Source: Prochlorococcus sp. MIT 0801
GTDB lineage: Bacteria; Cyanobacteriota; Cyanobacteriia; PCC-6307; Cyanobiaceae
Reading direction: 5' to 3'
DNA length: 32,000 bases
Assembly (NCBI RefSeq): GCF_000757865.1
Contig: NZ_CP007754.1
Location: forward strand, 1,080,001 to 1,112,000
Of this stretch, positions 4,214 to 28,506 are shown piece by piece. Position numbers and translations under genes: made by a program. Under the pieces are notes generated by a model that had not been told where the DNA came from, searched no databases, and saw only the letters and a program-made list of their open reading frames with translations. Position 1 is the stretch's first letter, and every line of letters starts with the position of its first letter.

Positions 4214-4258
4214 TATTTTTTTGTTGTTTTACTGAGAGTTCTATATTGATTAGTAATT

Positions 4259-8565: not shown

Positions 8566-8603
8566 AATTTGAGGATATATTCGATCCTCAATCATGTTCT
8601 TCT

Positions 8604-9518
8604 TTATTTATTAGCCCAAGAGCAGGGCTTTGAATATTTTCTATAAATAGTTGCATGACCTTCGTTGACCAAGTTTTGCTGCAAGTTTATTCCATCGATT
8701 GTGAGCTCTGCCACTGTTCTTCCATACCGATCCTCCGTAACTCTACGAATATTGGCTTCTTTCCCTTTTACTAAATTATTTAAATAGTCTCTTGCAGCTT
8801 TCGCAGGGATAGGATCTGACCTTCTTCCTCTGATTTCTGGAGTATCAATACAGGCAAGTCTAATTTTTTCGCCTTGTGAGGTTGTACAAGTATCACCGTC
8901 ATAGCAGCTTTGAATGGTTACGGAACCGATTTCAGGTTTGTTTGATTTTCGCCCCAAAGTCTCACATGCCTCTCCATCATTATCTCTATCTAAATAAGAA
9001 TGCCCCTCAATTAATAATTGCTGTGCTTTAGACCAATCCCCAATATCACCACATTTATATTTCTTTTTCAGTTGAATTATCTTATGGCATTCAGGAAATG
9101 GTGTGAGTTCCGATTTTTCAATACTGCAAGTTATTTGACCTTTGTTAAATTGATAGTGAAACGAGGGGTTAGATTTATATGTAGTAGGTATTAAATTGAT
9201 AAAGCCGTGAACTGGGTTGCCATTACAACTATTTGAATAATCGGAATCTATGTCATAGCCACGGATATTGATTTGCGAGAAATTTAGAGTCTCATTTAAA
9301 GCTTTATTTGCTTCACATTCAGACTTGATTCTTAAAATACTATTTTGGGCGATTACTTTTTCGGACTTACGTGTGATATCTAAGATTTTAATAAGACTTG
9401 TGCTGATTAAAACTGCCAGCACTGCTATGACAACTAATAACTCAATTAAAGAGAAGCCTTTCTCTCCTCCTTGATTCAATAGTTTTCTAATAAGTTTTTG
9501 CCTTAAGCTCACATCCAT
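8604..9518 (-). CDS. modular pilin: prepilin N-terminus + pilin-sized module + Excalibur Ca-binding domain + staphylococcal-type nuclease (SNase)
   Basis: Leader MDVSLRQKLIRKLLNQGGEKG then FSLIELLVVIAVLAVL. Excalibur signature CGDIGDWSKAQQLLIEGHSYLDRDNDGEACE (aa ~155-186). SNase motifs IRLACIDTPE and DRYGRTVAEL (aa ~198-295). Confidence 0.85.
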   Translation of the reverse strand: MDVSLRQKLIRKLLNQGGEKGFSLIELLVVIAVLAVLISTSLIKILDITRKSEKVIAQNSILRIKSECEANKALNETLNFSQINIRGYDIDSDYSNSCNGNPVHGFINLIPTTYKSNPSFHYQFNKGQITCSIEKSELTPFPECHKIIQLKKKYKCGDIGDWSKAQQLLIEGHSYLDRDNDGEACETLGRKSNKPEIGSVTIQSCYDGDTCTTSQGEKIRLACIDTPEIRGRRSDPIPAKAARDYLNNLVKGKEANIRRVTEDRYGRTVAELTIDGINLQQNLVNEGHATIYRKYSKPCSWANK

Positions 9519-9642: not shown

Positions 9643-11376
9643 TTGATAGAAGCAATCCTCTCAAGCACATTTAAGATTCTTCTGTGTTTTGCAATTCCAA
9701 GCTGTATGTTTTTAATTCAGCTTTTGAATGATAGTGAAAAAAAGAAATCAAGCTATTATCGAAGGCGAGCTTTTGCATATTCAGCACTTCTTTTTATTAT
9801 TACAGATTTTATTCCACTAATATTTGATTCTATAAATAATATTTCTAATGCCCCCTTTTTAGCGCGTGAAAATGCTATCGGTGCTTTACCTTGGCTAATT
9901 CTTATTATTAAGGGATTAGAAAAAGGTTTTGAGATAGATAAATCAGATCGTGGTTTCTTTTATTCAATTTGGGAACCTTTCTCAGATAAATCTGAAAAAA
10001 TGAATAACAGAGAAAGTAAAACTAATATAAAGTATAAAGATATAAACATTCAGAATGAAAAAAAAGTTTATGATTCTCAATCTCCCTTAGGTTTATTTTC
10101 TAATAAAAAAATTAATTCGTTTGAAAAGGAAAGGACAAGTAAAAAAGATAGGAAGGACAACTCTGATTTATTAAATATAGATATGGGTTCCCAAGTCTTG
10201 GAGAGAGTTGATTTCATATTAAGTGAATCATATGATAAAGATTATTCAGATATACATATTGAACCAAATGAAAATAATTACAAAATACGTGTTAGAAAAG
10301 ATGGCATACTTCAAAGTTTGATATATATAAAAAGCTTAGAAGGAGTTCAATTAATGGCATGTTTAAAGAATTTAGCGGATATGGATGTGTCTGAAAAAAG
10401 AGCTAGTCAAGATGGGAAAATTTATAAAAAATATAAAGGCAAAAAACTTGAATTTAGATGTTCGACTGTTCCGGTGAGAAATGGTGAGTCTATGGTTTTA
10501 AGACTTTTGAAAAGTGATTCGTTTTTGCTAGATTTAGACACTTTAATTAATTTGTCATATGTAAGAAACTCTTTTAGGGATTTAATTAGCTTACAAAATG
10601 GAATTATTATTGTTTGTGGTCCAACTGGATCAGGTAAATCCACAACTCTTGCTGCTGCTTTGAGAGAGATAGACAATGGAGAGATAAAGATAGTTACAGC
10701 TGAGGATCCAATTGAATATGCTTTAGGCGGAGACATCGTTCAAACACAAGTTAATAAAGCTAAAAATCAGACATTTCCATATCTTCTCAGAACATTTATG
10801 AGACATGATCCTGATGTTATATTGATTGGAGAAACACGTGATCCGGAGACTGCGAATGCCTCCATGGATGCATCAGAAACAGGACATCTAGTTTTTACAA
10901 CATTACATGCAAATAGTGCTGCAAGTTCGTTAACCAGATTGCTAGATATGGAGATACCAAAGTATAAATTAAATGCTTCGGTTAGGGGCGTTTTAGCTCA
11001 AAGACTAGTGCGTTGTGTTTGCAAGTCCTGTAGTGAGTTACGAGAAATAAAGGAAGAAGATTCAAATAAAACTGGTATTAAATGTAATACATTAGTTAGA
11101 TATGCCTCAGTCTTACCAGAAGAAAAAAGAAATATTAATAATACAATGTATTGTGAAGAATGTATGGGTACAGGCTATAAAGGAAGAATTGGAGTTTATG
11201 AGCTGCTAATTATTGATAGGAAAATAAAGAATGCTATTTTAAAGGGAATGACGGATCTTGAAATAGAAGATATTGCAATAGAAGATGGAATGATAACTCT
11301 AAGAGAGTACGGTAAACAACTAATCTATAATCAATTAACTACTGTTTCGGAGCTTGAAAGAGTTTGCAAAATATAA
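9643..11376 (+). CDS. PilB/GspE-family type IV pilus / type II secretion assembly ATPase with atypical N-terminal membrane region
   Basis: Walker A VCGPTGSGKSTT, Walker B/Asp box DVILIGETRD, His box TGHLVFTTLHAN, and a Zn-type Cys cluster (CVCKSC ... CEECMGTGYKGR). The first ~95 aa contain three hydrophobic stretches, followed by a Lys/Asn-rich linker. The track start is TTG; alternative Met starts are at 9706, 10000 and 10183. Confidence 0.9.
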   Translation: MIEAILSSTFKILLCFAIPSCMFLIQLLNDSEKKKSSYYRRRAFAYSALLFIITDFIPLIFDSINNISNAPFLARENAIGALPWLILIIKGLEKGFEIDKSDRGFFYSIWEPFSDKSEKMNNRESKTNIKYKDINIQNEKKVYDSQSPLGLFSNKKINSFEKERTSKKDRKDNSDLLNIDMGSQVLERVDFILSESYDKDYSDIHIEPNENNYKIRVRKDGILQSLIYIKSLEGVQLMACLKNLADMDVSEKRASQDGKIYKKYKGKKLEFRCSTVPVRNGESMVLRLLKSDSFLLDLDTLINLSYVRNSFRDLISLQNGIIIVCGPTGSGKSTTLAAALREIDNGEIKIVTAEDPIEYALGGDIVQTQVNKAKNQTFPYLLRTFMRHDPDVILIGETRDPETANASMDASETGHLVFTTLHANSAASSLTRLLDMEIPKYKLNASVRGVLAQRLVRCVCKSCSELREIKEEDSNKTGIKCNTLVRYASVLPEEKRNINNTMYCEECMGTGYKGRIGVYELLIIDRKIKNAILKGMTDLEIEDIAIEDGMITLREYGKQLIYNQLTTVSELERVCKI

Positions 11377-11399: not shown

Positions 11400-11800
11400 T
11401 AAAAGAGAAATCTCTTTGACAGGGCTAACTAAAACTGTGTTAGGAACATTTTGGAAGGAAAAAGATTGATCATTCCCCTTCATTGGGTTCTAAAAAAAGT
11501 GCAGAGAAAATGATCTTTCTTGAATTGCGATGAGAGGACAGGATTTCGACGACCGTCCCCCGATCTGGGTTGATGATGCTTACTTATTACGTCATCATTC
11601 CGGAAGAAATCTAAAAAGAACTTCTTTAGTCCTGATGTTCGTTTGAAATAGCGCTTTCCAATCTTTGCTTGTTTACTAGCTTGATTTCACCTATATATTT
11701 AATTTAGGCAAAACCTCATCATGACATAATTGACTTTATGTAGTACGAGTCGATTAATAACCCCTTTAGTTAATGAAATTTCCAGAGGGGTTTCTTTTTG
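11400..11800. repeat. copy B (longest) of the structured non-coding element
   Basis: 11532..11670 aligns with copy A. 11640..11800 aligns inverted with 24445..24610. 11400..11450 (agaaatctctttgacagggctaactaaaactgtgt) aligns inverted with 28105..28150. Stops in all frames. Confidence 0.75.
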
Positions 11801-11801
11801 G

Positions 11802-12056
11802 TTATTGCAGTTGTTGTTGTATTTACTCGTAAAAGGAAGAGGGATTTTTGATTGTTTTCCGATATCTACAAACTATCTAGGTAACTTGCTCAACATGAAT
11901 CCAGCGGATTTCACCAGTATCGACATTTGCGATCTGAAAAAGTGTGGTTGCCTCTGGATCTCGTGAACCACCAAAAAAAGTAACCATTTTTTCTATCTGA
12001 TCTTTTTCATAGAAAATAACGTCCCCAGGTCTGACTTATAAAAAATAGAGGTTCAT
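11802..12056 (-). pseudogene. decayed paralog of the 24153..24440 gene
   Basis: Codon-level alignment (VRPGD.V.YEKDQI.K..TF.GGSR.P......Q.ANVD.GE..WIH.E.V) with in-frame taa, tag and taa stops. Together with element B it forms the left arm of the inner inverted repeat. Confidence 0.8.
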
Positions 12057-12101
12057 AAATACTTTCTAACTAAATCCATATGACAGGAGAAGTATTTTTA
12101 A

Positions 12102-14366: not shown

Positions 14367-14488
14367 TATTTAAAACAATATATTGACATCATCATACATT
14401 AAATAGTTGTTTTTTAGCAGCCCAATTAAGTTATAATAATTATCGTATAGATCATTAGATTATTTCTGTATTTGAAGTCATTAAAGAT

Positions 14489-16186
14489 TTAATTTCTATA
14501 AATTATTAGATTACCAATAAACAAATAATCTAAATTTCCTCTGGAAAAAGAAGATAAAGCGTCTTTAGGCGACTCAACTATTGGCTCTCCAGGTAAATTA
14601 AAAGAAGTATTCAATAGAATTGGAATACCAGTCAACTTTTCTACTTCTATAAGCAATTTATATAAAATTTTATTTTGTTTTTCATTTACAGTTTGAACTC
14701 TAGCTGTGCCATCAATATGTTGAACAGCAATGAGTCTTTTATCTAGAACCTTTACATTCCTCATCATAACTGGAGAACTATCATTCATATCAAAATAGAG
14801 ATTGGCACGTTCTTCTATTACAACAGGAGCATAAGGACGGTATCTATCTCTGCACTTCATATAGTGATCTAAGAGATATTTTGTGAATCTACAAGATGGA
14901 TTGGCTAAAATACTTCGGTTACCTAAAGCTCTTGGTCCAAATTCACTTTTCCCTTGAAACCAAGCAATAACTTTTTCCTGATGAATAAGGTTAGACGCTT
15001 TTGCAAATAAATCATCATTAGAAAGAACTTCATATTTTAAATCAAAGTTTGATAATTCATTTATAGTTTCTTGCTCATTATAAGTTATGCCATAATAATC
15101 ATTTATTACTGAAAACTTACGATTAAAACTCATTTTTTGATTCACTGCTATGGCTGCACCAATGGCAGTGCCATTGTCTTCGACAGATCCATTTAAAATG
15201 ATAGATTTAAATAAATTACTCTTTTTTATTTTTTCGTTTGCAACAACATTTAGTGCAACCCCTCCAGAAAGATATAGATTTTCACATGGATATTTAGACT
15301 TAAGAAGATCTAATAACTTTAAAATTACATTTTCTGTCTCAGACTGTACTCTATTTGCTAAATTAATATGATGTATACTATCAGAAAGATCTAAACTAAA
15401 GATATTAGGTTTGTTATATATTTGATTGATTCTGGAAAAGTCTAAAGTGATTTTTCCAGAATCACTAATACTAAGTAAATCATTTTCGTTAGAATCTATA
15501 TCTTCACCATAGGCGGCTAAACCCATTACTTTTCCTGCAGAACTTCGCTTGCCACAACAATATAATGATGCCCAATCCCAATAATGACCGATGCTCTGGA
15601 GAAATCCTTTAGAATTTGAATTGTAATTTTCAATAGCAGCTATAGATGGACTGAATTTATAAATCAGGTGAGATTCTTTCCCATCAAACCAATATGCTGA
15701 AATAACTTCTTTACCACAAAAATGCGAAAAGTTAATAATTTTAGAGTGATATTTTTCTTTAATATTAAAATGATTTTTATCTTCCACTAAAGAACCACTT
15801 CCATCTATTACTAATACTATTCCTGGCTTGCTAAATCCATAATGAAGAATATATTCCATATGAGATAAATGATGAGGTACGTAGTATGTACCAAAGTAAT
15901 TTTTAGGAACTCCTCCAATATATTTGAACAATAATTCATTACTAATCTTCTTTACTTTCCATGGAGTAGAAAGTGCAATAGCATTTATATCTTCTAATTT
16001 TAATCCACTATAGTTTAAACAATAGTTTAAACATCTTTGTGCTAGTTCTAATTCATCACCAAGAGGTAGACTCTGACGTTTATAGCGCGAAATACGTTCA
16101 GCTTGAATAGCGACTTTTACTTCACCATCGCATAACAATGCTACACTCCCATTATGACTATTATTGATTCCAACAATTACATTCAT
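14489..16186 (-). CDS. NodU/CmcH-family carbamoyltransferase
   Basis: N-terminus IVGINNSHNGSVALLCDGEVKVAIQAERISRYKRQ and C-terminus GIPILLNTSFNLPGEPIVESPKDAL match the family hallmarks. Length 565 aa is typical. Confidence 0.85.
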   Translation of the reverse strand: MNVIVGINNSHNGSVALLCDGEVKVAIQAERISRYKRQSLPLGDELELAQRCLNYCLNYSGLKLEDINAIALSTPWKVKKISNELLFKYIGGVPKNYFGTYYVPHHLSHMEYILHYGFSKPGIVLVIDGSGSLVEDKNHFNIKEKYHSKIINFSHFCGKEVISAYWFDGKESHLIYKFSPSIAAIENYNSNSKGFLQSIGHYWDWASLYCCGKRSSAGKVMGLAAYGEDIDSNENDLLSISDSGKITLDFSRINQIYNKPNIFSLDLSDSIHHINLANRVQSETENVILKLLDLLKSKYPCENLYLSGGVALNVVANEKIKKSNLFKSIILNGSVEDNGTAIGAAIAVNQKMSFNRKFSVINDYYGITYNEQETINELSNFDLKYEVLSNDDLFAKASNLIHQEKVIAWFQGKSEFGPRALGNRSILANPSCRFTKYLLDHYMKCRDRYRPYAPVVIEERANLYFDMNDSSPVMMRNVKVLDKRLIAVQHIDGTARVQTVNEKQNKILYKLLIEVEKLTGIPILLNTSFNLPGEPIVESPKDALSSFSRGNLDYLFIGNLIIYRN

Positions 16187-16189
16187 GAC

Positions 16190-17605
16190 CTAAATTGGTA
16201 AAGTATTAATTAAATTTATTAAAGCTTTTCTAGCTAAATTATTTTCTTTAAATAGGGCAAGACTTCTTCGCGTAACAAGCCAGCCAATATCCTCTGTCTC
16301 ATTATCACTTATTAGGATCATAGATTTCTGAATATTAGTACAGGATAAATTCTCTACTTCTGAAAATTTGTTTATAGTATATTTATATTCACAATAACCT
16401 AATATGAGAAGAAACTTGTCTTTTTCATCTAATAATCCTAGTAATTTATTTAAATCATATTTCTTAAATATATATTTACTAAGATCAATTATATCTTCAT
16501 TTCTTTCATTTATTATTATAAGTTGTATAAAAATTGGTAATAGATTGTCTGTTAAACTTTGATCAACAAGTTTTTTTCCAAAATCGCACCAGAGTTTAAT
16601 GAATTCATTAACATAATCCTTTGTATATTTTGGTATATTTCTACAAATTTTTTCTAAAAGTTTTTTAGAATTTTCCCAATCACAATTTTCTATGATATTA
16701 ATTAGGTCAATATTTTCCAATAAATTCTCTCTGTAAAAATCAGAAACTTTAAGACCCTGAATTGAATAATATTTTGGATTTTTAGGTTCAAGCTTAGATG
16801 CTTTATTATAACTCAATATTGCTTCATCATATTTTCCTTGTTCTTTAAAGATATTTCCGAGCTTACAAAATGCATCTGCATAGTTAGGTTTATATTGAAT
16901 AGCTTTACGAGTAGAGATTTCTGAATTATTTAATTGGCCAAGATCCATCAATATATTTGCAAGATTTAAATGAGCTTCTGCAAATCCCGGTTTAATATCA
17001 ATACTTTTACGAACTGATATTAGAGCTTCGTCTAATTTTCCTAGATCTCTCATGATATTTCCAAGATTTAGATGAGCTTCAGCAAAGTCAGGTTTAAATT
17101 TAATAGCACTACATAAAGATATTTCTGATTCATTAAATTTACCAAGGTCTCTCAATATATTTGCAAGGCTAAGATGGGCCTCAGCAAAATTAGGTCTAAT
17201 TTCTATGGCCTTACGTATATAAATTTCAGCGTCCTTTAATCTATTAAGGCTCCTAAATACATTTGCTAAATTGTAATATGCGTTTTCCTTAGTTGGATCT
17301 AGATCAATAGCTTTACGAAACAATATCTCTGCTTCTTTAGATTTACCAATATCATTTAAAATGACTCCATAATTAGTAAAGACTCTATAATCAATTAAAC
17401 CATTTTTTATACAGTATTGATAGTGTTTGACAGCTTCTGAAATGTTACCATTCAAATGAAAACTTATTGCTTTTCCAATAATTTGTTCTTTAGACTCTTT
17501 AAATGAAATTTCTGAACTTAAAGTTATATTATCGCTAAAATCACTAATAGAAGAGGCGACTGTATATATTTTAACTCCATTCTTCTTACTTCCCCCTTCA
17601 GACAT
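16190..17605 (-). CDS. TPR-repeat protein with non-TPR C-terminal half
   Basis: About 7 TPR units. Residues ~50-190 are almost identical to the TPR region of 12636..14366. Its stop lies 3 nt before the carbamoyltransferase start. Confidence 0.75.
   Translation of the reverse strand: MSEGGSKKNGVKIYTVASSISDFSDNITLSSEISFKESKEQIIGKAISFHLNGNISEAVKHYQYCIKNGLIDYRVFTNYGVILNDIGKSKEAEILFRKAIDLDPTKENAYYNLANVFRSLNRLKDAEIYIRKAIEIRPNFAEAHLSLANILRDLGKFNESEISLCSAIKFKPDFAEAHLNLGNIMRDLGKLDEALISVRKSIDIKPGFAEAHLNLANILMDLGQLNNSEISTRKAIQYKPNYADAFCKLGNIFKEQGKYDEAILSYNKASKLEPKNPKYYSIQGLKVSDFYRENLLENIDLINIIENCDWENSKKLLEKICRNIPKYTKDYVNEFIKLWCDFGKKLVDQSLTDNLLPIFIQLIIINERNEDIIDLSKYIFKKYDLNKLLGLLDEKDKFLLILGYCEYKYTINKFSEVENLSCTNIQKSMILISDNETEDIGWLVTRRSLALFKENNLARKALINLINTLPI
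17020..17450. repeat. direct repeat arm 2 (5' TPR-coding region)
   Basis: See 13740..14170. Confidence 0.85.
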
Positions 17606-18182: not shown

Positions 18183-19892
18183 TTAAAAGAACGGGTTCTG
18201 TGCCTTATAAATTTCATAACCTTGATTCTCACCATCTGGTGATATTCCACTACTATCAGATCTAAAAGTAATGTGCTTCCCATCACTAGTTATCACTGGC
18301 TCCCTTAGATGACTGTCGAACTGATTAGCTTTGTCATCTAGTATCCTTTTTGTTTGACCAGTGGAAGTATTGTAGACATAAATATCAGCTATTCCATTTG
18401 TATCGTTATCATCAATATTTGTAGCCGATGATTGAAAAACTACGTAGTTACCATCTCTTGAAAAAGATGGCTGTTGTGACCATCCATCACCCTCATTTCC
18501 AGATGAACTCCCACTAATAGCATTTAACTCTCCAGAGTTCAGATCTTTGACCATGATTTGAGTATTCCCATTCCCCCCCCTGCTTGTGAACACTACTTTT
18601 GAACCATCTGAAGAGATAGAGCTTCCTCCACCTCCTCCAAATCCATACAATTGATCGCCTTGATTATTTGAGGATACCAGTGAAATTTCTGAAGTATTAA
18701 TATCTTGTACATAAAGGTTCGTTCCACTTGCTCCTGGGATTAAATCATCGCCTTCATAAACAAAACTTATTTTTGAGCCATCATCACTAATCCCAATTTG
18801 GCTAGTCGCATAGCTACCTCCTCGTGTCCTACCACTACCTGGAGAACCATCTGCTTTTGTAGGGACAACAATAAGCTCCCCTGTTTCCATATCCTTTCTA
18901 TAAATCAACCCTCTCCCTCCATCTTGTCTTTCTAAACCTGCAAATCTAGTATCAATACTTTCAAATACAACATATCTTCCGTCTGAAGACATTCTTGCCA
19001 TATCAATGCCCCAACTCGTCTGGATTTTTTCATTATTATCAAGAGTATCTACTCTAGTAATTTCACCTGTCACTAGATCTTTTCTATATATAGGTTGTGG
19101 TCCTTCACTATTACCAGCCTGACTATTTGGACCAGAAATACCGTCCAGGTCAACTGAGCCATATTCGTCAATACTTAGCAATGCATATCTACCATTGCAT
19201 GATAGATCCTGTATAAATGCTGAGTCTCCTGTTGATGGGGTACCATCTTTTGTCGAATCTATTAAAACTTTTTCACCAGATTTTATATCTACACGAAATA
19301 CGTGGCCTTCATCACCAGTAGACCAATCTCCTCGCTCAGTATAAAAATTACCATCACAGCTAATAATGCTATTTGAGCCATTCCCTGAGGATAGTTTAAC
19401 AAGTGCGTCCTCTATATCTCCACCACTAGAATTAGAACTAATACAAAGTAATCCTAAACACTCTGAGAAGTTAGTTCCTGTCTCCCCTTTAAAGCTATAA
19501 GTTAATTCATTCCCATTAGACGCCAATATAAAAGTAGGCAAAATATTCGTATCCGTAGGTATTGCACTAATTAATCCAGTTCCTGATGCTCCACTACAAC
19601 CATTAGATCCATCAGATTGGATTTGATAAAAATTTAAATTGCTTAAAGTAAATGTACCTACTTTGCCCGTGTCGGCTTTATTGATTTCACACTCAGTTTG
19701 AATTTGTTTCATGGCTGCCAACGCAGCAGTCGCTTGAGCTTTTCTCTGGAAGCAGGTAAACGTGGGGATTGCAATCGCAGATAGGACTGCCAGTACAGAA
19801 ACAACAACAACAAGTTCTATTAGAGAAAAACCTTCCTCACCTTGCTTACGCAAGAGCTTCCTTAACAGCTTAAGCTTTAAAATTTGCTCCAT
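18183..19892 (-). CDS. modular pilin: prepilin N-terminus + pilin module + large PD40/TolB-like beta-propeller domain
   Basis: Leader MEQILKLKLLRKLLRKQGEEG then FSLIELVVVVSVLAVL. The pilin module ends at ECLGLLC. The C-terminal ~410 aa hold repeated S.DG(R/S/N/K)(Y/K)(V/I).F.S blades (DGRYVVFES, DGSKISFVYEG, DGSKVVFTSRG, DGNYVVFQSSA, DGKHITFRSDS). Confidence 0.85.
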   Translation of the reverse strand: MEQILKLKLLRKLLRKQGEEGFSLIELVVVVSVLAVLSAIAIPTFTCFQRKAQATAALAAMKQIQTECEINKADTGKVGTFTLSNLNFYQIQSDGSNGCSGASGTGLISAIPTDTNILPTFILASNGNELTYSFKGETGTNFSECLGLLCISSNSSGGDIEDALVKLSSGNGSNSIISCDGNFYTERGDWSTGDEGHVFRVDIKSGEKVLIDSTKDGTPSTGDSAFIQDLSCNGRYALLSIDEYGSVDLDGISGPNSQAGNSEGPQPIYRKDLVTGEITRVDTLDNNEKIQTSWGIDMARMSSDGRYVVFESIDTRFAGLERQDGGRGLIYRKDMETGELIVVPTKADGSPGSGRTRGGSYATSQIGISDDGSKISFVYEGDDLIPGASGTNLYVQDINTSEISLVSSNNQGDQLYGFGGGGGSSISSDGSKVVFTSRGGNGNTQIMVKDLNSGELNAISGSSSGNEGDGWSQQPSFSRDGNYVVFQSSATNIDDNDTNGIADIYVYNTSTGQTKRILDDKANQFDSHLREPVITSDGKHITFRSDSSGISPDGENQGYEIYKAQNPFF

Positions 19893-19952
19893 CTAGTCAA
19901 TCTAGTTTGAATTTATAAAAGTGTCTTCAATTATTGAGAATCCCTGCTGTTA
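19893..19952 (-). promoter_or_regulatory. conserved pilin upstream region (putative promoter)
   Basis: 60 nt upstream of the ATG match the 60 nt upstream of 25625..26608 with 5 mismatches. Contains ttgaag and tataaa/taatct-like boxes. The exact -35/-10 assignment is uncertain. Confidence 0.5.
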
Positions 19953-20510
19953 GGACGAGCAATAAAAAGCGGCGCAAAACTAATCAAGTCGAACGCATTG
20001 AACTTGTCGGTTCTTACTCCTCACTATTTAAGCATTTTTCAAAATAATGGCAGTTTTATTTGCTTATTTTAGGTATTTGCATTTCCTTGTTGATCGCTAG
20101 AAAAAATTACTTCAATAAATTGGATTCACCTTGACCTTTACAGTTATAATCACTACCCAAAAACCCTTGGCCATCAAATTCATATCAATTCAAAAGAGTT
20201 TTACATACTCCATCTGGCATTGAAATTTGTGATTTCAACAGAGAAAGAATTAGACCTAAACAAGAAGACTTAATCGACAAAAACTCTAAGAAAAGATGAC
20301 TGTCATATCAGAGGAAATATTTCCACTCAAAAGATTAAGCTCCTGTGGTTATCTAACATTGCCTAACTTTTGTGTTTTAGCCTGATCCTGAAATACGACT
20401 GTAATCGACTAGTATGACCAGATATAATGTAGCTTTTATTTAACGTCTAGGGAAGCTAGTTATTCCATGGGATCTTAATTGATGTCATGGAGAAAGACAT
20501 ACTTCTAAAA

Positions 20511-21500
20511 TTAGTTGCAGATTGAAAGTTCTGCCAATCCCTGGTAACTACCCTCAATAGGAGTGTTAGTCATATCATCGAGATACATATTCTGGTTGGA
20601 AGCGTTTGGATTATTGAATATTGCTAATAATCGATCAGAATTAGAATCCGGACCTTCTTCAATGTTGTTGTTTAACACTAGATTAGAAAAAGAATTATCA
20701 AAATTGTCTCCATTGGACCATTCCCAGCTACCGTTTGGATTCCTTTTTGCACCTGTCCAAAAATGATTGATTGACCATTCATTTGGTGCCCAGGAATGAT
20801 TATCATCAGAGTACTGATATTTTGCTTTAGAAAACTCTTCTCCTATCCAAATGTTTTCCTCTAGGTCTGTAACGGAAACAAGATTGCCTCCTAAGGCAAT
20901 TGCATTTGCATTTGCATCGGTCCAATTAGGACCGTCAACTAAAACATAGGCCGAGCAACCTTTTTCGATATAAGTATCTTTTCTGACAAAAGAATTAGCT
21001 TCTATATTCGCCTGAAATGTACTACCTCCTGTGTAACCATTGGCTACATTGCAAACCAAACCCAATCCTTTGGAGAGATCAGTTCCTGTTTGACCTTTAA
21101 AGCTATACGTTAATTCACTACTATTAGTCGCCAATATGAAAGTAGGCAATATATTTGTATCGGTAGGTATTGCACTAATTAATCCTGTTCCTGATGCTCC
21201 ACCACAACTATTAGATCCATCAGATTGGATTTGATAAGAATTTAAATTGCTTGAAGTAAATGTACCTACGTTACCTGTATCAGATTTATTAATTTCACAT
21301 TCAGTATGAATTTGTTTTATGGCTGCCAATGCAGCAGTCGCTTGAGCTTTTCTCTGGAAGCAGCTAAACGTGGGAATTGCAATCGCAGACAGGACTGCAA
21401 GCACTGACACAACAACTACAAGTTCAATTAAAGAAAAACCTTCCTCACCTTGCTTACCCAAGAGCTGCCTGAAGAGTTTTAGCTTTAAAGTTTCCTCCAT
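20511..21500 (-). CDS. modular pilin: prepilin N-terminus + pilin module + C-type-lectin-like domain (variant A)
   Basis: Leader MEETLKLKLFRQLLGKQGEEG then FSLIELVVVV. The C-terminus has a CTLD pattern: CSAYVLVDGPNWTDANANAIALGGNLVSVTDLEEN..WTGAKRNPNGSWEWSNGDNF ... LSICN. Confidence 0.8.
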   Translation of the reverse strand: MEETLKLKLFRQLLGKQGEEGFSLIELVVVVSVLAVLSAIAIPTFSCFQRKAQATAALAAIKQIHTECEINKSDTGNVGTFTSSNLNSYQIQSDGSNSCGGASGTGLISAIPTDTNILPTFILATNSSELTYSFKGQTGTDLSKGLGLVCNVANGYTGGSTFQANIEANSFVRKDTYIEKGCSAYVLVDGPNWTDANANAIALGGNLVSVTDLEENIWIGEEFSKAKYQYSDDNHSWAPNEWSINHFWTGAKRNPNGSWEWSNGDNFDNSFSNLVLNNNIEEGPDSNSDRLLAIFNNPNASNQNMYLDDMTNTPIEGSYQGLAELSICN

Positions 21501-21521
21501 ATAGTCAATCTAGATCGAATA

Positions 21522-21679
21522 ATGCTTTTTGTCTGGGCATTAAAAACTAAACGGACAAGGATCAATCGATTTCGTTCTTATGGGTGGATCTGGAAAAGAT
21601 TGCTGATATTTACGGCGTGAGTCCTACAACAGTTAGGAGGTGGTCTATTTATCAGCGTTTGATTTATTCCAAGTCATAA
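21522..21679 (+). pseudogene. frameshifted copy of the small HTH gene
   Basis: MLFVWALKTKRTRINRFRSYGWIWK, then a 1-nt frame break in an A-run. The helix-turn-helix part (IADIYGVSPTTVRRWS) continues in another frame. The intact paralog is at 25421..25555(-). Confidence 0.75.
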
Positions 21680-21816
21680 GACTTGCGACCTTTATCAGTA
21701 ATTCTTTATCTTCCACCTTTTAGGCCAGGAAATTAGAACATATTCAAAGGGATTAGAATTTTCAAGCGCCCCCTACAGAGCCCCCTGAGTAATACCTGCG
21801 ACCTAGTGCTCCTGAA

Positions 21817-23068
21817 TTGACTAAAACAGTCGATCAACCAAGTTGGGTAAAAGAATTTCGAAAAGCAGTTAAAGCTTCTATCCCAAAAGGTTGGTTAGTC
21901 ATGCAAGGTAATAAAGAATCAACAAGGGATCAAATTCGTAAGGATGCTAAAAAAATTGTAGATTTAACAATTCCATACGCATGGAAAGAATCAGATTGGT
22001 CTAGTGCACTTTTAAGAATTAGATCAGCAGCAAAAGCTTATGAAGAATCAAATCAAAGATTAGATATAAAAACTTGCTTCAATATTGCTCACACAGTTTC
22101 AAGTGAGACAGAAATTAACTTGGAAAAAACAATCGAGACTTATAGGGAATTTAAAAAGATCGTGTAAAAGATTCGACTAGGCGTAGCAAATATCACCCTG
22201 TCTTTAAGAACCTAATCAAGGCCACTAGAAATACTTCCAAAGCACCTTTAAATGGGCCAGTACTTTGCAAGCTTGCACTTAAACAATGGCAACAAGGAAC
22301 ACCAATAAGAAGACACATGCACCTAGCCCTTTTTGGGTTTCTTCGGTTTTGTGTTCAGGAACAGCAGTTAGAGTCCACATAGTTGCCCCCAGCCGTAACA
22401 GATAAAGATGTAGTCACTACTAAAAAAAGAATTGGTTATCCCTTAACTGATTAACAAATTCTTCGATTATTAGATTCATTCCCCTTAGATGAAATTGGAA
22501 ATAAATGGAGATTTGCTTTTCGATATATGGCTGTTTATGGCCTAAGACCTTAGGACCTCCGAACTATCCACACCCGCAATTTTGGTCAAGAGATTTGGAC
22601 TAATTACGAAAACTCGAGAGGTGGTAAGAAAGGAGAAAAACCAGGGGCTAGACGTTTGTTTATATCCGTTGCTGGTCCATGACATTGATGGTCCAATTAA
22701 CTGGCATCTAAAAGAACAATTAGCGATATGTGAAAAGGAAGGTTTTAAACGACTTTCCCCCGATTTGTAAAGAGGGTAATGCTGGCGATACTTTTAGAAC
22801 TTATTTAAGTCGCAGAAAAGTTTGGGAGGCTATCAGAACAGAAGTTTCCAGAGAAAGTCAAGAATTAACTGCTTATTCATTCCGGCATAGATATCCCTAC
22901 TGCGGTCACAATCGACCTAAAGCGGATGGTAGTTATAAAGCTCCAAAACTAATTGCTGATGCAATGGCTCATTCATTAGATACTCATCTTTTGATCTATT
23001 CCAGATTCCAAACGAAAGATCAAGCTAGTGCTTTTGACGAAACATCACTCCTAGTTAAAGGTGCTTAA
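21817..23068 (+). pseudogene. tyrosine recombinase / phage-type integrase, multiply disrupted
   Basis: The frame is broken into at least 4 pieces by stops and frameshifts. Box I is AVYGLRP*DL (a stop where Glu is expected). Box II is AYSFRHRY. The C-terminus is AHSLDTHLLIYSRF with the catalytic Tyr. Confidence 0.8.
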
Positions 23069-23189
23069 CAAGAAAACCAGGTATTTAAAGTTAGGTTCAT
23101 TATTTCAATTTTTGAAAGATCAAAATAAATACTGATTGTCACAAATCAATTTTTTGTAAAAATAGATACAAACATTAAGGAAAAATCCA

Positions 23190-23489
23190 TTGAACCTAAA
23201 AAACAAATTCACTTCAAAGTCATCGCAGGTTCCAATAGGAACCCAAGAGGCAAGAATAAGAAATGACCGCCAAGCAGTTTTTCAGGTTGTAAGAGATTTA
23301 GTACAGGCTCAATTTGCCCGAGGTGATGAAGAATTAACTAAGAGACTTTGGCAGGATGTTGCAGATAGAAAGATTGACCTGGACCGTGTGATAAATCTTA
23401 TGTATACCTGTTCTTTTCATGAAGATGATGAAGAAATGACCAAAGTTGACGAGATTTATCAAAAGACAGGCTTGGTTGGTATGAATTAA
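23190..23489 (+). CDS. hypothetical protein
   Basis: 99-aa ORF with a TTG track start. Hydrophilic, with no recognisable motif. Confidence 0.35.
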   Translation: MNLKNKFTSKSSQVPIGTQEARIRNDRQAVFQVVRDLVQAQFARGDEELTKRLWQDVADRKIDLDRVINLMYTCSFHEDDEEMTKVDEIYQKTGLVGMN

Positions 23490-23595
23490 TTACTATCCCC
23501 TACGATCACACAATATAAATAAGACAAACTCTCGGACATCGACAATATTTTGGAGTCATGTCATGTATATTTCATATTTTCTCTTTGTTAGGCGA

Positions 23596-23745
23596 TTATT
23601 TACTATCTTTGTCTCGCCAATCTCGCTTCAATGCATAGTCTTTGCTGTTATCTAGGTAAACCACCAGAAAACCAAATAAAAGTCCAATAAAAGCAACTAA
23701 AATCACGAGTTGATTAATTGGAGAAAGATTTTGTAAGAAATTCAT
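23596..23745 (-). CDS. possible 49-aa single-TM peptide
   Basis: MNFLQNLSPINQLVILVAFIGLLFGFLVVYLDNSKDYALKRDWRDKDSK. ATG 23745, TAA 23596-23598. Confidence 0.35.
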   Translation of the reverse strand: MNFLQNLSPINQLVILVAFIGLLFGFLVVYLDNSKDYALKRDWRDKDSK

Positions 23746-23814
23746 TTAAAATATCTAATTATTAATCTATAGTTAGCTTTCATATTTTTCTATAACTCAC
23801 TTTATAAATCTTGT

Positions 23815-24063
23815 TTAAACCTTTCGAGTCTTTTGATTGGATGAATTTCTATTTGAAGGTTGAAATCTAAGCTGATCTCTAAAATCTTCATCAGCCCAAT
23901 AGTAATCATCGTAAAATGAAAAGGCTGACATAGCGACACCAGCTGTAAGGAGCGCCCCCAAGATCAAAATAATATAGAGAAGGGAAGAAGATGGAACCCA
24001 ATTACCAGTTCCAGAAAAAACCGCAAAAAGCATCGTCGGGACAACAATTAAATTTCTATACAA
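23815..24063 (-). CDS. small membrane protein, hypothetical
   Basis: 82 aa with two hydrophobic helices. TTG track start, with an internal ATG (MLFAVF...) about 10 codons in. Confidence 0.4.
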   Translation of the reverse strand: MYRNLIVVPTMLFAVFSGTGNWVPSSSLLYIILILGALLTAGVAMSAFSFYDDYYWADEDFRDQLRFQPSNRNSSNQKTRKV

Positions 24064-24152
24064 CTAGATTGGCCAAGGAAAATATTTTTACTAGCTGAAA
24101 GAAATACCCAATTTGTATAAATTCTGATGATTGGTCAAAAAGGATACTTCCA

Positions 24153-24440
24153 TTGCTTGATGGATTTGGACAAAATGAACTTTTGGATGAACCTATATTT
24201 TTAAAAGTTAGACCTGGGGACGCTGTACTCTATGAAAAAGATCAGATAGGAAAAATTCTTACTTTTATTGGTGGATCAAGATATCCAGACGCACAGACTC
24301 TCTCCCAAAGCGCAAATGTAGATTCTGGAGAAAATTGCTGGATTCATGGAGAGGAAGTTATCGAGATAGTTAGTGAATATCGAACAACAATCAAAAAGCT
24401 CTCTTCCTTTTACGAGCAAATACAGCAACAGCAGCAATAA
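24153..24440 (+). CDS. hypothetical protein (intact copy; pseudogene paralog at 11802..12056)
   Basis: 95-aa ORF ending in a poly-Gln tail. TTG track start. Its conservation in a second, decayed copy argues that it is a real gene. Confidence 0.55.
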   Translation: MLDGFGQNELLDEPIFLKVRPGDAVLYEKDQIGKILTFIGGSRYPDAQTLSQSANVDSGENCWIHGEEVIEIVSEYRTTIKKLSSFYEQIQQQQQ

Positions 24441-24444
24441 CCAA

Positions 24445-24610
24445 CAAGAAACCCCTCTAGAAATTCCAATAACTAAAGGGGTTATTAAATTGACTCGTAC
24501 TATATGAAGTCAATTTATGTCTTGATGAGGTTTGGCCTCAATAAAATTTATAGGTGAAATCAGCATAGAAAACAAGCAAAGCTTTGAAACCCCTACCTCA
24601 TATGACTGAA
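24445..24610. repeat. copy D of the structured non-coding element (proximal part), right arm of the inner inverted repeat together with 24196..24440
   Basis: Inverted match to 11640..11800. Contains stem-loops aacccct/aggggtt (24450-24483) and attgact/agtcaat. Confidence 0.8.
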
Positions 24611-25420
24611 CCTGAAGTCCATCCAAAGAAATATTTTGACCAAATAGAGGTGTTTAGCTCCATGGGAAAGAGCTCATGTATCCATGGTCCAAAGTCACCA
24701 AAGAGATTCTTTATAAATGAACCATAATGCCTTTATGAAACCCCTTTGACAGAATTGATGGGGTTGTAAGGGAAGAGGGCCTAAAAATGTTTGATAGTTT
24801 GGTTTAGCAGAGTTGGCATGAAGATCGCAACATTCCAAAACCAGCTAATAAGTGGTTTGAAGCAAGAGTGAAAGAGTTTAAATCTGGAACAGATATTGAT
24901 CTTGTTTGTAATTGTCGAAGATTTAGAGGTCAAGATGATGCTGTTCTCCTTGGAATGGATCCAAAACAAGTTAGAAAAGATATGGAAAGAAGAGATGCTT
25001 AATACAAAGAAATGAGCCTAGAGGTTGGTAGAGATATAAGACGACCAAAGGAACAGAAGAAAAAACAAAAAATTACCGCCGAGCAAAGAAAACTTTTGAA
25101 GAGCTAGTCCACTCAAAGGGCGGTAAAACTTTAAAAGATCTATTAAAAGAACAGGGCGATATATAAGCCTCACTCAGTCAAAAACGAAATCGAATCTCTG
25201 CCTATAAAGGTTTCTAAATAAGTTATCTAATAGATGATTTTCAACTGCTTTTTTCTTGTTGTTGTTAATCCTGCAAAGGTCGCAGTTTTCCTTTTGAGGA
25301 ATAGTGAAGGGAGTGAATAGTCTCATAAGACCTCCTCTTGATACATCTTTGGTCTAATCCTTCTTTTGGCCTGTAGGGAGTAGGAAAACACTACAAAAAT
25401 GTGAATAAATAGTTAACTCT

Positions 25421-25555
25421 TTAAGCCATAGACCACCGCCTAACAGTGCTAGGAGAAACCCCGTAAACAAGTGAGATTTTCTTCCAGTTCCAACCGTATT
25501 TTCTATACCTGTTAATTCTTGTTTTCTTGGTATCTAACGCCCAGATAAAAAGCAT
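25421..25555 (-). CDS. small HTH DNA-binding protein (44 aa), only intact copy of four
   Basis: MLFIWALDTKKTRINRYRKYGWNWKKISLVYGVSPSTVRRWSMA. Divergent from the pilin gene at 25625. Decayed copies at 21522..21679, 27922..27947 and 28282..28402. Confidence 0.6.
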   Translation of the reverse strand: MLFIWALDTKKTRINRYRKYGWNWKKISLVYGVSPSTVRRWSMA

Positions 25556-25564
25556 TAGCGAAAT

Positions 25565-25624
25565 TAACAGCAGGGCTTCTCAATATTTGAAGACACCTTT
25601 ATAAATTTAATCTAGATTGACTAG
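25565..25624 (+). promoter_or_regulatory. conserved pilin upstream region (putative divergent promoter shared with the HTH gene)
   Basis: taacagcagggcttctcaatatttgaagacacctttataaatttaatctagattgactag. 55/60 identical to the region upstream of 18183..19892. Mostly deleted upstream of 20511..21500. Confidence 0.5.
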
Positions 25625-26608
25625 ATGGAGGAAAGTATAAAGCTAAAACTCTTCAAGCTGCTCTTGGGTAAGCAAGGTGAGGAAGGTTTTTCTTTAATTG
25701 AACTTGTAGTTGTTGTGTCAGTGCTTGCAGTCCTGTCTGCGATTGCAATCCCCACGTTTAGCTGCTTTCAGAGAAAAGCTCAGGCGACTTCTGCACTGGC
25801 AGCAATGAAACAAATACAAACTGAGTGTGAAATTAATAAATCTGATACGGGTAGCGCAGGTACGTTTACTTTAAGTAATTTAAATTCTTATCAAATCCAA
25901 TCAGATGGATCTAATGGTTGTGGTGGAGCATCAGGAACTGGATTGATTAGTGCAATACCTACTGATACAAATATATTGCCTACTTTTATATTGGCTTCTA
26001 GTGGTAATGAATTAACTTATAGCTTTAAAAAACAGACTGGAAATAACTTTCAAGATTGCTTGGGAATGCTTTGCAATACTTTCAGAGGCCAACAAACAAG
26101 AGACTTTGTCCTTTCAGATCAATTTGAAGACATTGTTATTGAAGAAACCTATATAGAGCGAGGTTGTTCTGCTTATGCATGGGTTGGAGGTCCAAGCTGG
26201 CTAGAAGCTCAAGCAAATGCTAAAAAGCTTGGTGGCAATTTGGCAACGATTAACGATAAAGAAGAGAATGATTTTCTAATGAATATTTTCAATGAAGAGG
26301 GAAGGAAACATATACCCGTACAACAAGGTCATCTTAATTTACATATCGGTCTAACAAAGACTGTCGAAGCTGATGAGGGCGCACCATATGGTAATGGTTG
26401 GATCTCAGGGGAATCTTCACTCTATAGACCATCCACTTGGGGGGTTTGTAACAGTGAATGGTGTGGGATGGGAACTGATCCAGATGGAGATCATACTTCT
26501 TTTATTTTAGATCTTAATGATCAAAATCCATCAGCAAATTGGAATGATTTTCCTAATTGGCAAGGCGAAGGAGTGGGACTTGTAGAAATACCAATATGTA
26601 ATAACTAG
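25625..26608 (+). CDS. modular pilin: prepilin N-terminus + pilin module + C-type-lectin-like domain (variant B)
   Basis: Leader MEESIKLKLFKLLLGKQGEEG then FSLIELVVVV. The pilin module ends at DCLGMLC. The C-terminus reads CSAYAWVGGPSWLEAQANAKKLGGNLATINDKEENDFL...LHIGLTK...GNGWISGES...WNDFPNW...EIPICNN. Confidence 0.8.
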   Translation: MEESIKLKLFKLLLGKQGEEGFSLIELVVVVSVLAVLSAIAIPTFSCFQRKAQATSALAAMKQIQTECEINKSDTGSAGTFTLSNLNSYQIQSDGSNGCGGASGTGLISAIPTDTNILPTFILASSGNELTYSFKKQTGNNFQDCLGMLCNTFRGQQTRDFVLSDQFEDIVIEETYIERGCSAYAWVGGPSWLEAQANAKKLGGNLATINDKEENDFLMNIFNEEGRKHIPVQQGHLNLHIGLTKTVEADEGAPYGNGWISGESSLYRPSTWGVCNSEWCGMGTDPDGDHTSFILDLNDQNPSANWNDFPNWQGEGVGLVEIPICNN

Positions 26609-26815
26609 GTTCTTACTGGGGGTGTCATATGGGTCAGGTCATCCAAAGGGCGCGGATTCGGTCTAGCCTTTGGCCCTAATAGTTGTAGGCACTGGTTAAT
26701 TGCAGAAATAGCAGTAATACCAGTGGATTAGAGAGATTAAGAAATCTCCTATGGACAGCTAAAAATAGAGAAAGTGCATACTTTAAAAATGATTATTTAT
26801 TACCCCGTTAGCGTG

Positions 26816-27004
26816 CTATTGCAATATTAAACCTAAGTAATCTTTTAATTTTGGCTTTCCAATGGAATTTAAAAGGTGCTGATCTTTTCCCTTAACCTCA
26901 CATAGATAATCGTCTAACAATCCATCTCTTTTGAGTTTGTATAGCGTCGATCTACTCCTATAAGCAAACTTTTTGCTCGCTTGTGTATAAGTTAAGAGTG
27001 CCAT
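26816..27004 (-). CDS. putative small HTH DNA-binding protein (excisionase/AlpA-like)
   Basis: MALLTYTQASKKFAYRSRSTLYKLKRDGLL... resembles Xis/HTH_17-type N-termini. The call is by pattern only. Confidence 0.4.
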   Translation of the reverse strand: MALLTYTQASKKFAYRSRSTLYKLKRDGLLDDYLCEVKGKDQHLLNSIGKPKLKDYLGLILQ

Positions 27005-27145
27005 AATTGATAACCATTGGTTGACTAGTTAACTTAATTAAATTGTTTCTATCCCTCGCTAATTTGGATTTGTTAAGCAAAAATCTCCATACTTATCAGC
27101 GGTGACGCAAAATAAAAACCGCGGTGCGAATAAACCCGTAAAAGG

Positions 27146-27400
27146 TTTCTTTTAAAGGGACTCGTGCATAGTACGACTACCAACCGAACCCAGTCATGTC
27201 AGTAAAGAGTGCTTTATTCTCAGCTGATTCTGCAAGTCCAAGGAGTACTTCATATCTTGTTTCCGCTCCACTATTCAATTGGCCTAGCCAATAGTTTAAG
27301 CCTCCTGTATCAGCATCACGACCTAGAACATTCTGATAGAGAGTATTTAAATAGGTTGAATCGGTTACATCGTCTCCTTAACGTTATTTAAATTCAGCTC
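27146..27400 (-). pseudogene. truncated DUF4214 C-terminal fragment; right arm of the outer inverted repeat
   Basis: Inverted near-identical copy of 8311..8565 with two in-frame taa stops and no 5' part. Confidence 0.85.
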
Positions 27401-27453
27401 TACATAAATAGGAGAAGGAAAACACCACAAAAAGTTGAATAAAAAGTTAATTT

Positions 27454-27618
27454 CTAAGTGATCCTTCTATTAATTCTTTTTCTTAATTTCTTTAGTTGAA
27501 CATTGAATCTTAATTGCTTTATGTGATCAAGCTTTTCTGCTATATCAACAGGCATGGTCCTTACTGCCTTAACCAATGAGAAAGCATATCTATGAGTCTC
27601 TTTGGGAAAAGAATCCAT
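27454..27618 (-). CDS. small hypothetical protein (54 aa), third member of the MDS..HRYAF family
   Basis: MDSFPKETHRYAFSLVKAVRTMPVDIAEKLDHIKQLRFNVQLKKLRKRINRRIT. Same length as 207..371. The upstream ~45 nt are also shared with copy 1. Confidence 0.5.
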   Translation of the reverse strand: MDSFPKETHRYAFSLVKAVRTMPVDIAEKLDHIKQLRFNVQLKKLRKRINRRIT

Positions 27619-27960
27619 AGTCGAAGTAGGGACATATCAGCCACTCAAGCGAAAACGATAACCATTTGTCTATGAAGAAAATTACTTAAATTGCCAATCT
27701 CCTAGCAGTTACAGAGATCAGGGTGTTCACCTCTATCACAATGTATATGATGTGCTGATGGTATTATTCCGTCACAGGTATATTCCATTGCTGTTCCTGG
27801 CATCTTGAATCCGTCAGATAGAGTCCCACCACCACCAATAGTGCAGTCAGCAATGCGACTAAAGGATGAAAAAATAAATTACGCAAAAGTGTCGAAGCCT
27901 TTCCGCTCATAAAACACTTGCTCAAGCCATAGACCACCTCTTAACAGAAAATAGTAAAAA

Positions 27961-28150
27961 AGACTGGAAAGCTCTACCTGAACCGAACATCAGCTCAAGA
28001 AAATTTCCTTTTAGATTAAATTTTAGATTGATGGCGTACTAAGAAGCGTGATCAAATTAGATCAGAGGACAGTCGCCGAAATCCTGTCCTCTCTTCGCAA
28101 AGCTTTCTCACACAGTTTTAGTTAACCCTCCGCTGAGAGGGATTTCTTAT
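27961..28150. repeat. copy C of the structured non-coding element (inverted relative to A and B)
   Basis: ggaaagctctacctgaaccgaacatcag ... a perfect 9-bp hairpin agaggacag/ctgtcctct (28064-28092, 11-nt loop) ... a second hairpin ccctc/gaggg (28129-28144) followed by atttctt. Confidence 0.75.
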
Positions 28151-28281: not shown

Positions 28282-28402
28282 TCAAGCGATTGATCACCTT
28301 CTAACTGTTGTTGCTGAAACTCCATATATTCCAGCAATTGTTTTCCAGCTCCAGCCGTAAATTCTATATCTCTTGATTCTGTTTTTTTATATCCAATGCC
28401 AA
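28282..28402 (-). pseudogene. decayed copy of the small HTH gene
   Basis: LALDIKKT, then a frame break in an A7 run, then RIKRYRIYGWSWKTIAGIYGVSATTVRR* (tgg to tga). Confidence 0.7.
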
Positions 28403-28506
28403 AAAAATATCATAAGAGGAACCATGATCACAGCGCAAAGTCATACCCAAACACATGGAAAGGTATCATTAGTTTGAAAGAATGCATTTATGTCGAGTGA
28501 GGGTTC

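Follow-up and report, generated by a model that had tools for sequence, protein, structure and literature searches.

A stretch of 32,000 nt from the low-light (LLI) strain Prochlorococcus sp. MIT 0801 (contig NZ_CP007754.1, positions 1,080,001 to 1,112,000; hereafter the window), encodes four proteins, termed P1 to P4, which couple an N-terminal head of type IV prepilin character to a C-terminal cargo domain that differs from one member to the next (Table 1). P1, P2 and P3 exactly match known proteins of this strain, and P1 is in addition 100% identical to its protein P0038. A first-pass annotation of the DNA had singled out P2 and P3, whose inverted 5' parts it read as a possible recombination switch between two lectin cargoes, and had named P1 as a third paralog. 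P1 is indeed a paralog, but the family is not confined to three genes: with P4, AIQ97520.1 and AIQ97602.1, the last two lying about 100 and 190 genes away as estimated from accession numbering, it has at least six members in the MIT 0801 genome. The window also encodes a PilB-type assembly ATPase, while no gene for PilC, PilD or PilQ was found within it. Its G+C content per kb ranges from 27 to 44%, mostly about 30-38%.

Table 1. Features of the pilin locus, in window coordinates and in order of position.
Feature	Position	Strand	Evidence or remarks
P4 (AIQ97396.1): more divergent prepilin head, Excalibur and SNase cargo	8604..9518	-	Pfam (N_methyl 28.0 bits), alignment
PilB-type T2SSE assembly ATPase	9643..11376	+	Pfam T2SSE E=3.8e-103; syntenic with pilin arrays at two loci of relatives (L006, L010)
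P1 (AIQ97405.1): prepilin head, PD40/TolB-like beta-propeller cargo	18183..19892	-	N_methyl 24.6 bits, PD40 E=1.5e-11
P1 upstream element, putative promoter	19893..19955	-	-35 TTCTCA ~19935-19940, -10 TATAAA 19912-19917
P2 (AIQ97406.1), whole gene	20511..21500	-	exact match to MIT 0801 protein
P2 cargo, C-type lectin-like domain A	20511..21050	-	weak Pfam Lectin_C E=0.07; orthologs
P2 head: leader, G/FSLIEL prepilin motif, alpha-1 helix, small pilin domain	21051..21500	-	N_methyl 25.6 bits; alignments
90-nt perfect run, P2 side	21376..21465	-	head alignment
P2 residual 21-nt upstream region, junction of 48-nt deletion	21501..21521	-	alignments; no -10-like box
Small helix-turn-helix ORF copy, frameshifted, divergent from P2	21522..21680	+	six-frame translation
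Tyrosine-recombinase pseudogene (predicted)	21817..23068	+	tblastn against intact 405-aa P0164: 3 frameshifts, 3 in-frame stops
99-aa ORF, function not assigned by family search	23190..23489	+	no family match
DUF3104 ORF	24153..24440	+	Pfam PF11302, 28.9 bits
Yfr13 small RNA gene	24464..24539	-	Rfam RF02364, 78.1 bits
Intact 44-aa HTH_23 ORF, divergent from P3	25421..25555	-	Pfam HTH_23 E=5e-6, 26.6 bits
P3 upstream element	25557..25624	+	-35 TTCTCA 25577-25582, -10 TATAAA 25600-25605
P3 (AIQ97416.1): prepilin head ~25625-26075, C-type lectin-like domain B	25625..26608	+	N_methyl 25.6 bits, Lectin_C 21.2 bits
90-nt perfect run, P3 side	25660..25749	+	head alignment

The heads of all four proteins are recovered by the N_methyl profile (PF07963) above its curated cut-off of 21.2 bits, and the prepilin motif reads EEG/FSLIELVVVV, the stroke marking the predicted cleavage site, with Gly at -1, Phe at +1 and Glu at +5. 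In a phmmer search of the PDB, F22 of P3 is matched to the first residue of the mature pilins PilA, PilE and geopilin. An AlphaFold (AF2) model of P3, with a predicted local distance difference test score (pLDDT) of 79, has a helix spanning residues 24-75 that is followed by five strands, and shows a small beta domain and then a separate C-terminal domain, for which Foldseek returns the C-type lectin-like domains of CD23, mincle, langerin and the mannose receptor with a probability of 1.0 and a TM(target) of about 0.6. The Pfam Lectin_C profile is borderline for both P2 and P3, and a precomputed PF00059 match is carried by family members other than P2; the full-length identity of environmental orthologs to P2 is 75-84%, with the cargo being highly conserved. 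The family thus displays the sequence and fold features of type IV pilins along with the extra C-terminal domain that marks a modular pilin. Modular pilins are widespread, with 264 domain combinations and lectin modules among the grafts (Raynaud et al. 2021, PMC8179133), and by sequence and predicted fold P1-P4 fit that study's concept of a modular type IV pilin, i.e. a pilin module with a grafted domain; they are predicted to be incorporated into pili. What had been described earlier as a shared 5' module is the whole pilin module plus the leader. P4 is divergently adjacent to the PilB-type ATPase gene, and a nuclease-bearing pilin of this kind is unusual for Prochlorococcus.

The description of the repeat given in the first-pass annotation, namely a 5' match of about 450 nt at about 90% identity with a perfect run of 90 nt, inverted modules about 4.1 kb apart and strongly diverged lectin-coding 3' parts, is largely borne out. 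A repeat search of the window recovers inverted arms at 21083-21520 and 25605-26042, each of 438 nt, with 91% complementarity and a spacing of 4084 nt; identity between P2 and P3 across their first 459 coding nt is 87.6%. Their longest perfect match does measure 90 nt (gene positions 36-125), starts with GCTCTTGGGTAAGCAAGG and ends with GCGATTGCAAT, matching the ends recorded earlier. Past codon ~150 only one stretch of 60 aa can be aligned between the two proteins, at 47% identity. The term near-identical is apt for the first ~125 nt of the modules, but not beyond, where the heads are about 85% identical. P1 likewise shares the 5' module and has an intact upstream region, as had been stated: its repeat with P3 (arms 19436-19952 and 25565-26081) extends over 517 nt at 87%, and its longest perfect runs are 33 nt with P2 and 26 nt with P3. 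A constraint at the RNA level was considered as the cause of the 90-nt run and rejected, because P1 has nine differences there and orthologs differ too. Another inverted repeat of equal quality, 295 nt at 91%, lies in the window at 8289-8583 and 27127-27421; it comprises the DUF4214 tail of an RTX-like protein (7070-8530) and a fragment 3' of P3, and a crossover there would invert 18.5 kb, so that it is on a par with the pilin repeat as a substrate for recombination.

The two copies differ in what precedes them. An element of about 62 nt directly 5' of the ATG is common to P1 and P3 in the alignment and holds TTCTCA-N17-TATAAA, ending 19 nt before the ATG in both genes. P2 lacks exactly 48 nt of it, corresponding to P3 25557-25604, and with them the -35 box and all but one base of the -10 hexamer; the upstream asymmetry reported earlier, with a full element at the plus-strand copy (P3) and a curtailed one at the minus-strand copy (P2), is therefore real and of precisely that length. 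A box scan finds no hexamer with a 5/6 match to TATAAT within 300 nt upstream of P2. The element is kept in six of the seven aligned family members (P1, P3 and the loci L014, L015, L009 and L008), which come from four genomes or metagenomes, and this conservation supports a function for it. It is probably a promoter, and its 48-nt deletion would be expected to silence P2. Genes with P2-type cargo were found in a single-cell genome (L014), on a metagenome contig (L015) and in a genome assembly (L009). As all three of these orthologs keep the element intact, the deletion in MIT 0801 is, by this comparison, a derived and strain-specific lesion rather than a conserved silent cassette.

Both parts of these proteins are under purifying selection, with ratios of nonsynonymous to synonymous divergence (dN/dS) of 0.2-0.3 in the heads and 0.06-0.22 in the cargo. 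For the P2 cargo the ratio against its orthologs is 0.14-0.19, compared with 0.22 between the orthologs themselves, i.e. the constraint is not relaxed. Synonymous divergence (dS) of the heads is 0.45 for P1-P2, 0.48 for P1-P3 and 0.27 for P2-P3; for the last pair it is 0.058 in codons 1-50 and 0.34-0.49 in codons 51-150. A Sawyer-type permutation test on 137 variable sites in six heads finds a run of 25 concordant sites between P2 and P3 (p=0.005 uncorrected, about 0.07 after correction for 15 pairs). The low 5' dS together with this run shows a recent exchange of a short 5' stretch between P2 and P3. Over 125 residues, the head of AIQ97520.1 shares 96% amino acid identity with that of P2, against 86% for the head of P3, and so is nearer to P2 than any other head encoded in the window, which implies a recent head exchange across about 100 genes. 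Given this closer head and the 295-nt repeat of equal quality, the P2/P3 pair does not stand out as a recombination substrate. Between strains, head and cargo tell different histories: L014 and L015 differ by a dS of 0.21 in the cargo and 0.52 in the head, L009 differs from the other P2-type genes by 1.6-2.8 in the cargo and 0.4-0.5 in the head, and a sliding identity matrix is patchy. Heads and cargo are re-paired over evolutionary time.

The relatives also allow a comparison of locus layout. P3-type orthologs at three loci (L005, L006, L007) show 80-87% nucleotide identity and have a different leader and upstream region. That difference had prompted the idea that P3 acquired its leader, promoter and helix-turn-helix (HTH) gene by a reciprocal swap with P2; as P2 keeps the same head type, this was rejected, and any transfer would have been duplicative. 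Each of L005 and L006 carries three direct tandem copies, with the array of L006 adjoining PilB, and L010 has two direct copies, one on either side of PilB, whereas L014, L009 and L008 have a single family copy each. Thus no inverted pair is present at the other loci sampled, all multi-member loci (L005, L006, L010) being direct, and the inverted architecture that the switch would need is not conserved. At L008, in a Prochlorococcus single-cell genome (7911-10951), a pilin-lectin gene lies directly 3' of a 629-aa large serine recombinase, which suggests that family members may travel as cargo of integrative elements; this gene has the same HTH and promoter head, and core cox/ctaA genes adjoin the two. 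A scan of genome contigs for sibling loci returned only distant ones at 38-48% identity, a metagenome scan with the P2-type alignment returned three distant loci, and two scans of viral contigs returned nothing. Literature searches on the locus tags of MIT 0801 (EW15) and on cyanobacterial fusions of pilin and lectin yielded no relevant reports.

The spacer between P2 and P3 is probably derived from integrative elements. A small divergent HTH open reading frame (ORF) sits directly upstream of both genes and forms part of the duplicated unit. Further decayed HTH_23 copies occur at ~28284-28413(-) and ~3760-3850(+), making four in the window, of which one is intact; they share the core YGVSP(S/T)TVRRWS, have several copies in island contigs of other strains (L014, L009), and the 44-aa ORF behaves like a dispersed small element or an N-terminal remnant of a transposase or excisionase. 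The decayed tyrosine recombinase that had been placed inside the segment is likewise recovered: 21817-23068 is colinear with residues 1-401 of the intact P0164, interrupted by the lesions listed in Table 1. The remnant and its short homologs have no match in Pfam, PHROGs or single-sequence or profile searches of the PDB, while six of ten full-length relatives show PF00589 (Phage_integrase) matches with E-values of 2e-5 to 9e-4, all below the cut-off. The motifs GLRPEDL, SFRHRY and GH..DTHLLSY are present in an intact relative, and for 21817-23068 they are recorded as GLRP.DL, SFRHRY and H..DTHLL.Y; an AF2 model of the intact recombinase fragment was too poor to use (pLDDT 44). Fragmented integrases are reported to be common and scattered in Prochlorococcus islands, where the tyrosine recombinases form a lineage distinct from the common types (Hackl et al., bioRxiv 10.1101/2020.12.28.424599), and by its motifs and colinearity 21817-23068 is most readily classified as a dead tyrosine recombinase of this divergent kind. 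No other recombinase domain was found among the window ORFs scanned. Two Logan contigs carry the integrase fragment, both internal to the segment, and one of them is 100% identical to 22537-24627; the read sets SRR12829168 and SRR29904083 hold sequence identical to MIT 0801. The decayed integrase here, as well as the pilin-lectin gene directly following a large serine recombinase at L008, resembles the tycheposon and island remnants described by Hackl et al.; as distinct from tycheposons, the window holds no tRNA gene that could serve as attachment site (ARAGORN; no search aimed at partial tRNA fragments was made), a replication module was likewise not found, and intact element boundaries are not defined in it.

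Taken together, these observations lead to the proposal, which we regard as probable though well short of certain, that the locus reflects a modular-pilin family with occasional gene conversion, lodged in an island remodelled by integrative elements, in which P2 has recently lost its promoter. P1-P4 and the two distant paralogs would together make up a family of modular type IV pilin genes residing in an LLI genomic island of Prochlorococcus. Their head of about 150 aa, with its leader, G/FSLIEL cleavage and methylation motif, long alpha-1 helix and small beta domain, is predicted to be recognised by the prepilin peptidase and the PilB-driven assembly machinery, while the C-terminal cargo (lectin-like A or B, PD40 propeller, or Excalibur and nuclease) would be exchangeable and either displayed on the filament or released from it. 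The 5' similarity would then represent a shared functional domain together with the 62-nt promoter and leader, held by purifying selection, with the heads being patched by occasional gene conversion and by reshuffling of head and cargo within and between genomes. The inverted layout of P2 and P3 and their 4.1-kb spacer may have arisen by insertion and decay of integrative-element DNA (the HTH ORFs, the dead tyrosine recombinase, DUF3104 and Yfr13), and the 48-nt promoter loss of P2 would be a recent lesion in this strain only.

Certain observations weigh against this proposal. The P2 ORF is intact and its constraint is not relaxed despite the lack of a recognisable promoter, which fits a very recent deletion but also intermittent expression. 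The inverted copies of P2 and P3 do recombine, to judge from the conversion tract, and if such an event were resolved as a crossover the segment would be inverted. Moreover, inversions by homologous recombination between repeated copies are known from Prochlorococcus cultures (bioRxiv 10.1101/2020.12.28.424599), although the copies concerned were 100% identical and the repeats here are 91% identical.

Precedents for the proposed architecture come from two directions. In Streptococcus sanguinis, PilB with a vWA domain and PilC with a lectin (PMC8179133) show the same combination of a pilin module and a grafted domain, lectin grafts included. The MIT 0801 grafts differ in being of a C-type lectin-like fold, a PD40 propeller or a nuclease, and in being spread over at least six paralogs in a streamlined genome, which use one head and, in at least P1 and P3, a common promoter element; the host is here a planktonic cyanobacterium, and incorporation of its modular pilins into the filament is predicted. 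The other precedent is the picocyanobacterial PilA1, which has a GF(T/S)LxE motif, the GFSLxE variant being found mainly in Prochlorococcus, a conserved N-terminal region of ~50 residues, hypervariable C-termini and several clustered pilin-like genes, and whose pilus is carried by about one in four LLI cells (Aguilo-Ferretjans et al. 2021, PMC7994388). The MIT 0801 family resembles it in the prepilin motif, in the conserved N-terminus with a variable C-terminus and in the clustering of pilin-like genes; however, PilA1 averages ~140 aa with no extra domain, whereas members of the MIT 0801 family have 304-569 aa with grafted cargo. Pilin-cargo fusions are not described in that paper, in whose text the word lectin occurs 0 times. 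Were the proposal to hold, pilus-bearing LLI cells would carry fusions of pilins with lectin-like, propeller and nuclease domains, some of them adjoining integrases, which share their head (and in P1 and P3 the promoter element too) and reshuffle cargo over evolutionary time. Pili of a planktonic phototroph would then be expected to serve in glycan binding and perhaps in the degradation of DNA, and the family would illustrate how islands can diversify cell-surface proteins by modular means.

Among the alternatives, we consider it unlikely, if still worth weighing, that P2 is still expressed where it stands, through some other or weaker promoter or read-through, such that both lectin pilins are made, the deletion only tunes the level and switching is not required. 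The intact ORF and a cargo dN/dS of the order seen between orthologs speak for it, as does a sigma-70-like TTGAAA-17-TATGTT at 21765-21737 on the P2 strand. Promoters of Prochlorococcus often use a -10 box alone. However, the promoter scan finds 17 promoter-like sites against an expected mean of 27.0 in shuffled sequence, so that the site at 21765 weighs little; even a 5/6 TATAAT-like box is lacking within 300 nt, and the piece lost is precisely the element conserved in six other family members.

The inversion switch itself, in which a RecA crossover between the heads would flip the 21.5-25.6 kb segment and move the intact promoter from P3 to P2, leaving populations mixed for which lectin-tipped pilin is made, appears distinctly unlikely. 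Its structural premises stand: P2 and P3 are divergent with both upstream regions inside the segment, such that a crossover in the heads would indeed change which cargo the intact promoter precedes, the difference between the two promoters is confirmed, and a recent exchange tract is specific to this pair. Further, the 90-nt perfect run exceeds typical minimal pairing lengths, purifying selection still acts on the P2 cargo, and the culture inversions cited above provide a precedent; a RecA-mediated inversion is therefore physically possible. What finds no support is that the locus works, or has evolved, as a switch. The loss of the promoter is a derived state confined to this strain, the inverted architecture is not conserved in relatives, the only recombinase at the locus is dead, the heads are just ~85% identical past the first 125 nt, and equal or better partners are available in the 295-nt inverted repeat and the AIQ97520.1 head. 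Repeats of 438 bp at 91% identity are expected to rearrange rarely, and not at the frequency of phase variation. If true, the switch would give Prochlorococcus its first reported surface structure with phase variation, and would exemplify inversion switching independent of a recombinase.

The likeness to shufflons that had been drawn for this locus is partial on comparison with known switches. In the R64/IncI1 shufflon, PilV has a constant N-terminus and exchangeable C-terminal segments, and the Rci tyrosine recombinase is encoded beside the invertible DNA; it uses multiple short sfx repeats and an active Rci, and its alternatives are 3' fragments with neither promoter nor start codon. The MIT 0801 locus shares with it a type IV pilin with a constant N-terminus and varied C-termini; the adjacent putative tyrosine recombinase is here dead. 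In contrast, sfx-like short repeats, an active recombinase and promoterless 3' alternatives were not found: at the segment boundaries there are no separate short inverted recombination sites, only the 438-nt coding homology, and each of P2 and P3 is a full ORF that begins with an ATG and leader of its own, the P2 orthologs also having their own promoter element. In Moraxella, a dedicated active Piv recombinase acts on short inverted repeats, with a single fixed promoter and a constant 5' end. There, in the tfpQ/tfpI system of M. bovis and M. lacunata, the inversion junction lies inside the pilin gene and sets the expressed C-terminus, both phases being present in culture reads (PMC9585708). 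Two alternative pilin C-terminal coding regions in inverted orientation are common to both systems, whereas MIT 0801 has two complete genes, 438 nt of diverged homology and a pseudogene as its sole recombinase.

A broader version of this idea, which we hold to be highly unlikely, is that the shared head and promoter serve as a portable recombination handle, with RecA crossovers among the heads of P1, P2, P3 and AIQ97520.1 continually inverting or deleting cargo or re-pairing it with promoters. A clone would then be a mixture of cells with lectin-, propeller- or nuclease-tipped pili, i.e. a homology-driven 'shufflon' free of a recombinase, generating surface variation in a streamlined ocean phototroph, with possible uses against grazers, against phage or in particle attachment. 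Least tenable of all is a role of P2 as a silent donor cassette comparable to Neisseria pilS, itself unexpressed and giving sequence to its paralogs by non-reciprocal conversion: although P2 has lost its promoter, has a conversion tract with P3 and a head nearly identical to that of AIQ97520.1, it differs from the pilE/pilS arrangement in that the exchanged tract lies in the conserved head and not the variable cargo, so yielding no new variants, and in that P2 still has a start codon and leader and a complete ORF on which purifying selection acts, its orthologs have promoters, and there is one silent copy with no cassette array.

Some further features of the window concern its repeats and intervening genes. 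A second Yfr13 copy lies at 11705-11778(+) (41.8 bits), both copies adjoin a DUF3104 ORF, and the block 11639-12099 recurs in inverted form at 24138-24605 with 80% identity. A 3.35-kb piece (24606-27951), containing an HTH ORF, P3, a 62-aa ORF and the DUF4214 fragment, interrupts the inverted copy of this PilB-downstream block, and about 35-40 nt of the uninterrupted copy (11639-11678) are present on both of its sides (24566-24605 and 27952-27991). This arrangement resembles an insertion scar, and the P3 cassette may have come as the insert. An element of ~150 nt with two short hairpins, GGACAG...CTGTCC and ATGATG...CATCAT, and no Rfam match at the gathering threshold occurs three times, at 4074-4219(+), 11525-11664(+) and 27956-28106(-), with 74-82% identity. 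Between the PilB/P4 pair and P1-P3, the stretch 12636-17605(-) encodes a carbamoyltransferase and a pair of TPR proteins, of which one bears a 2OG-Fe(II) oxygenase domain; the TPR genes have common internal repeats with a period of 102 nt.

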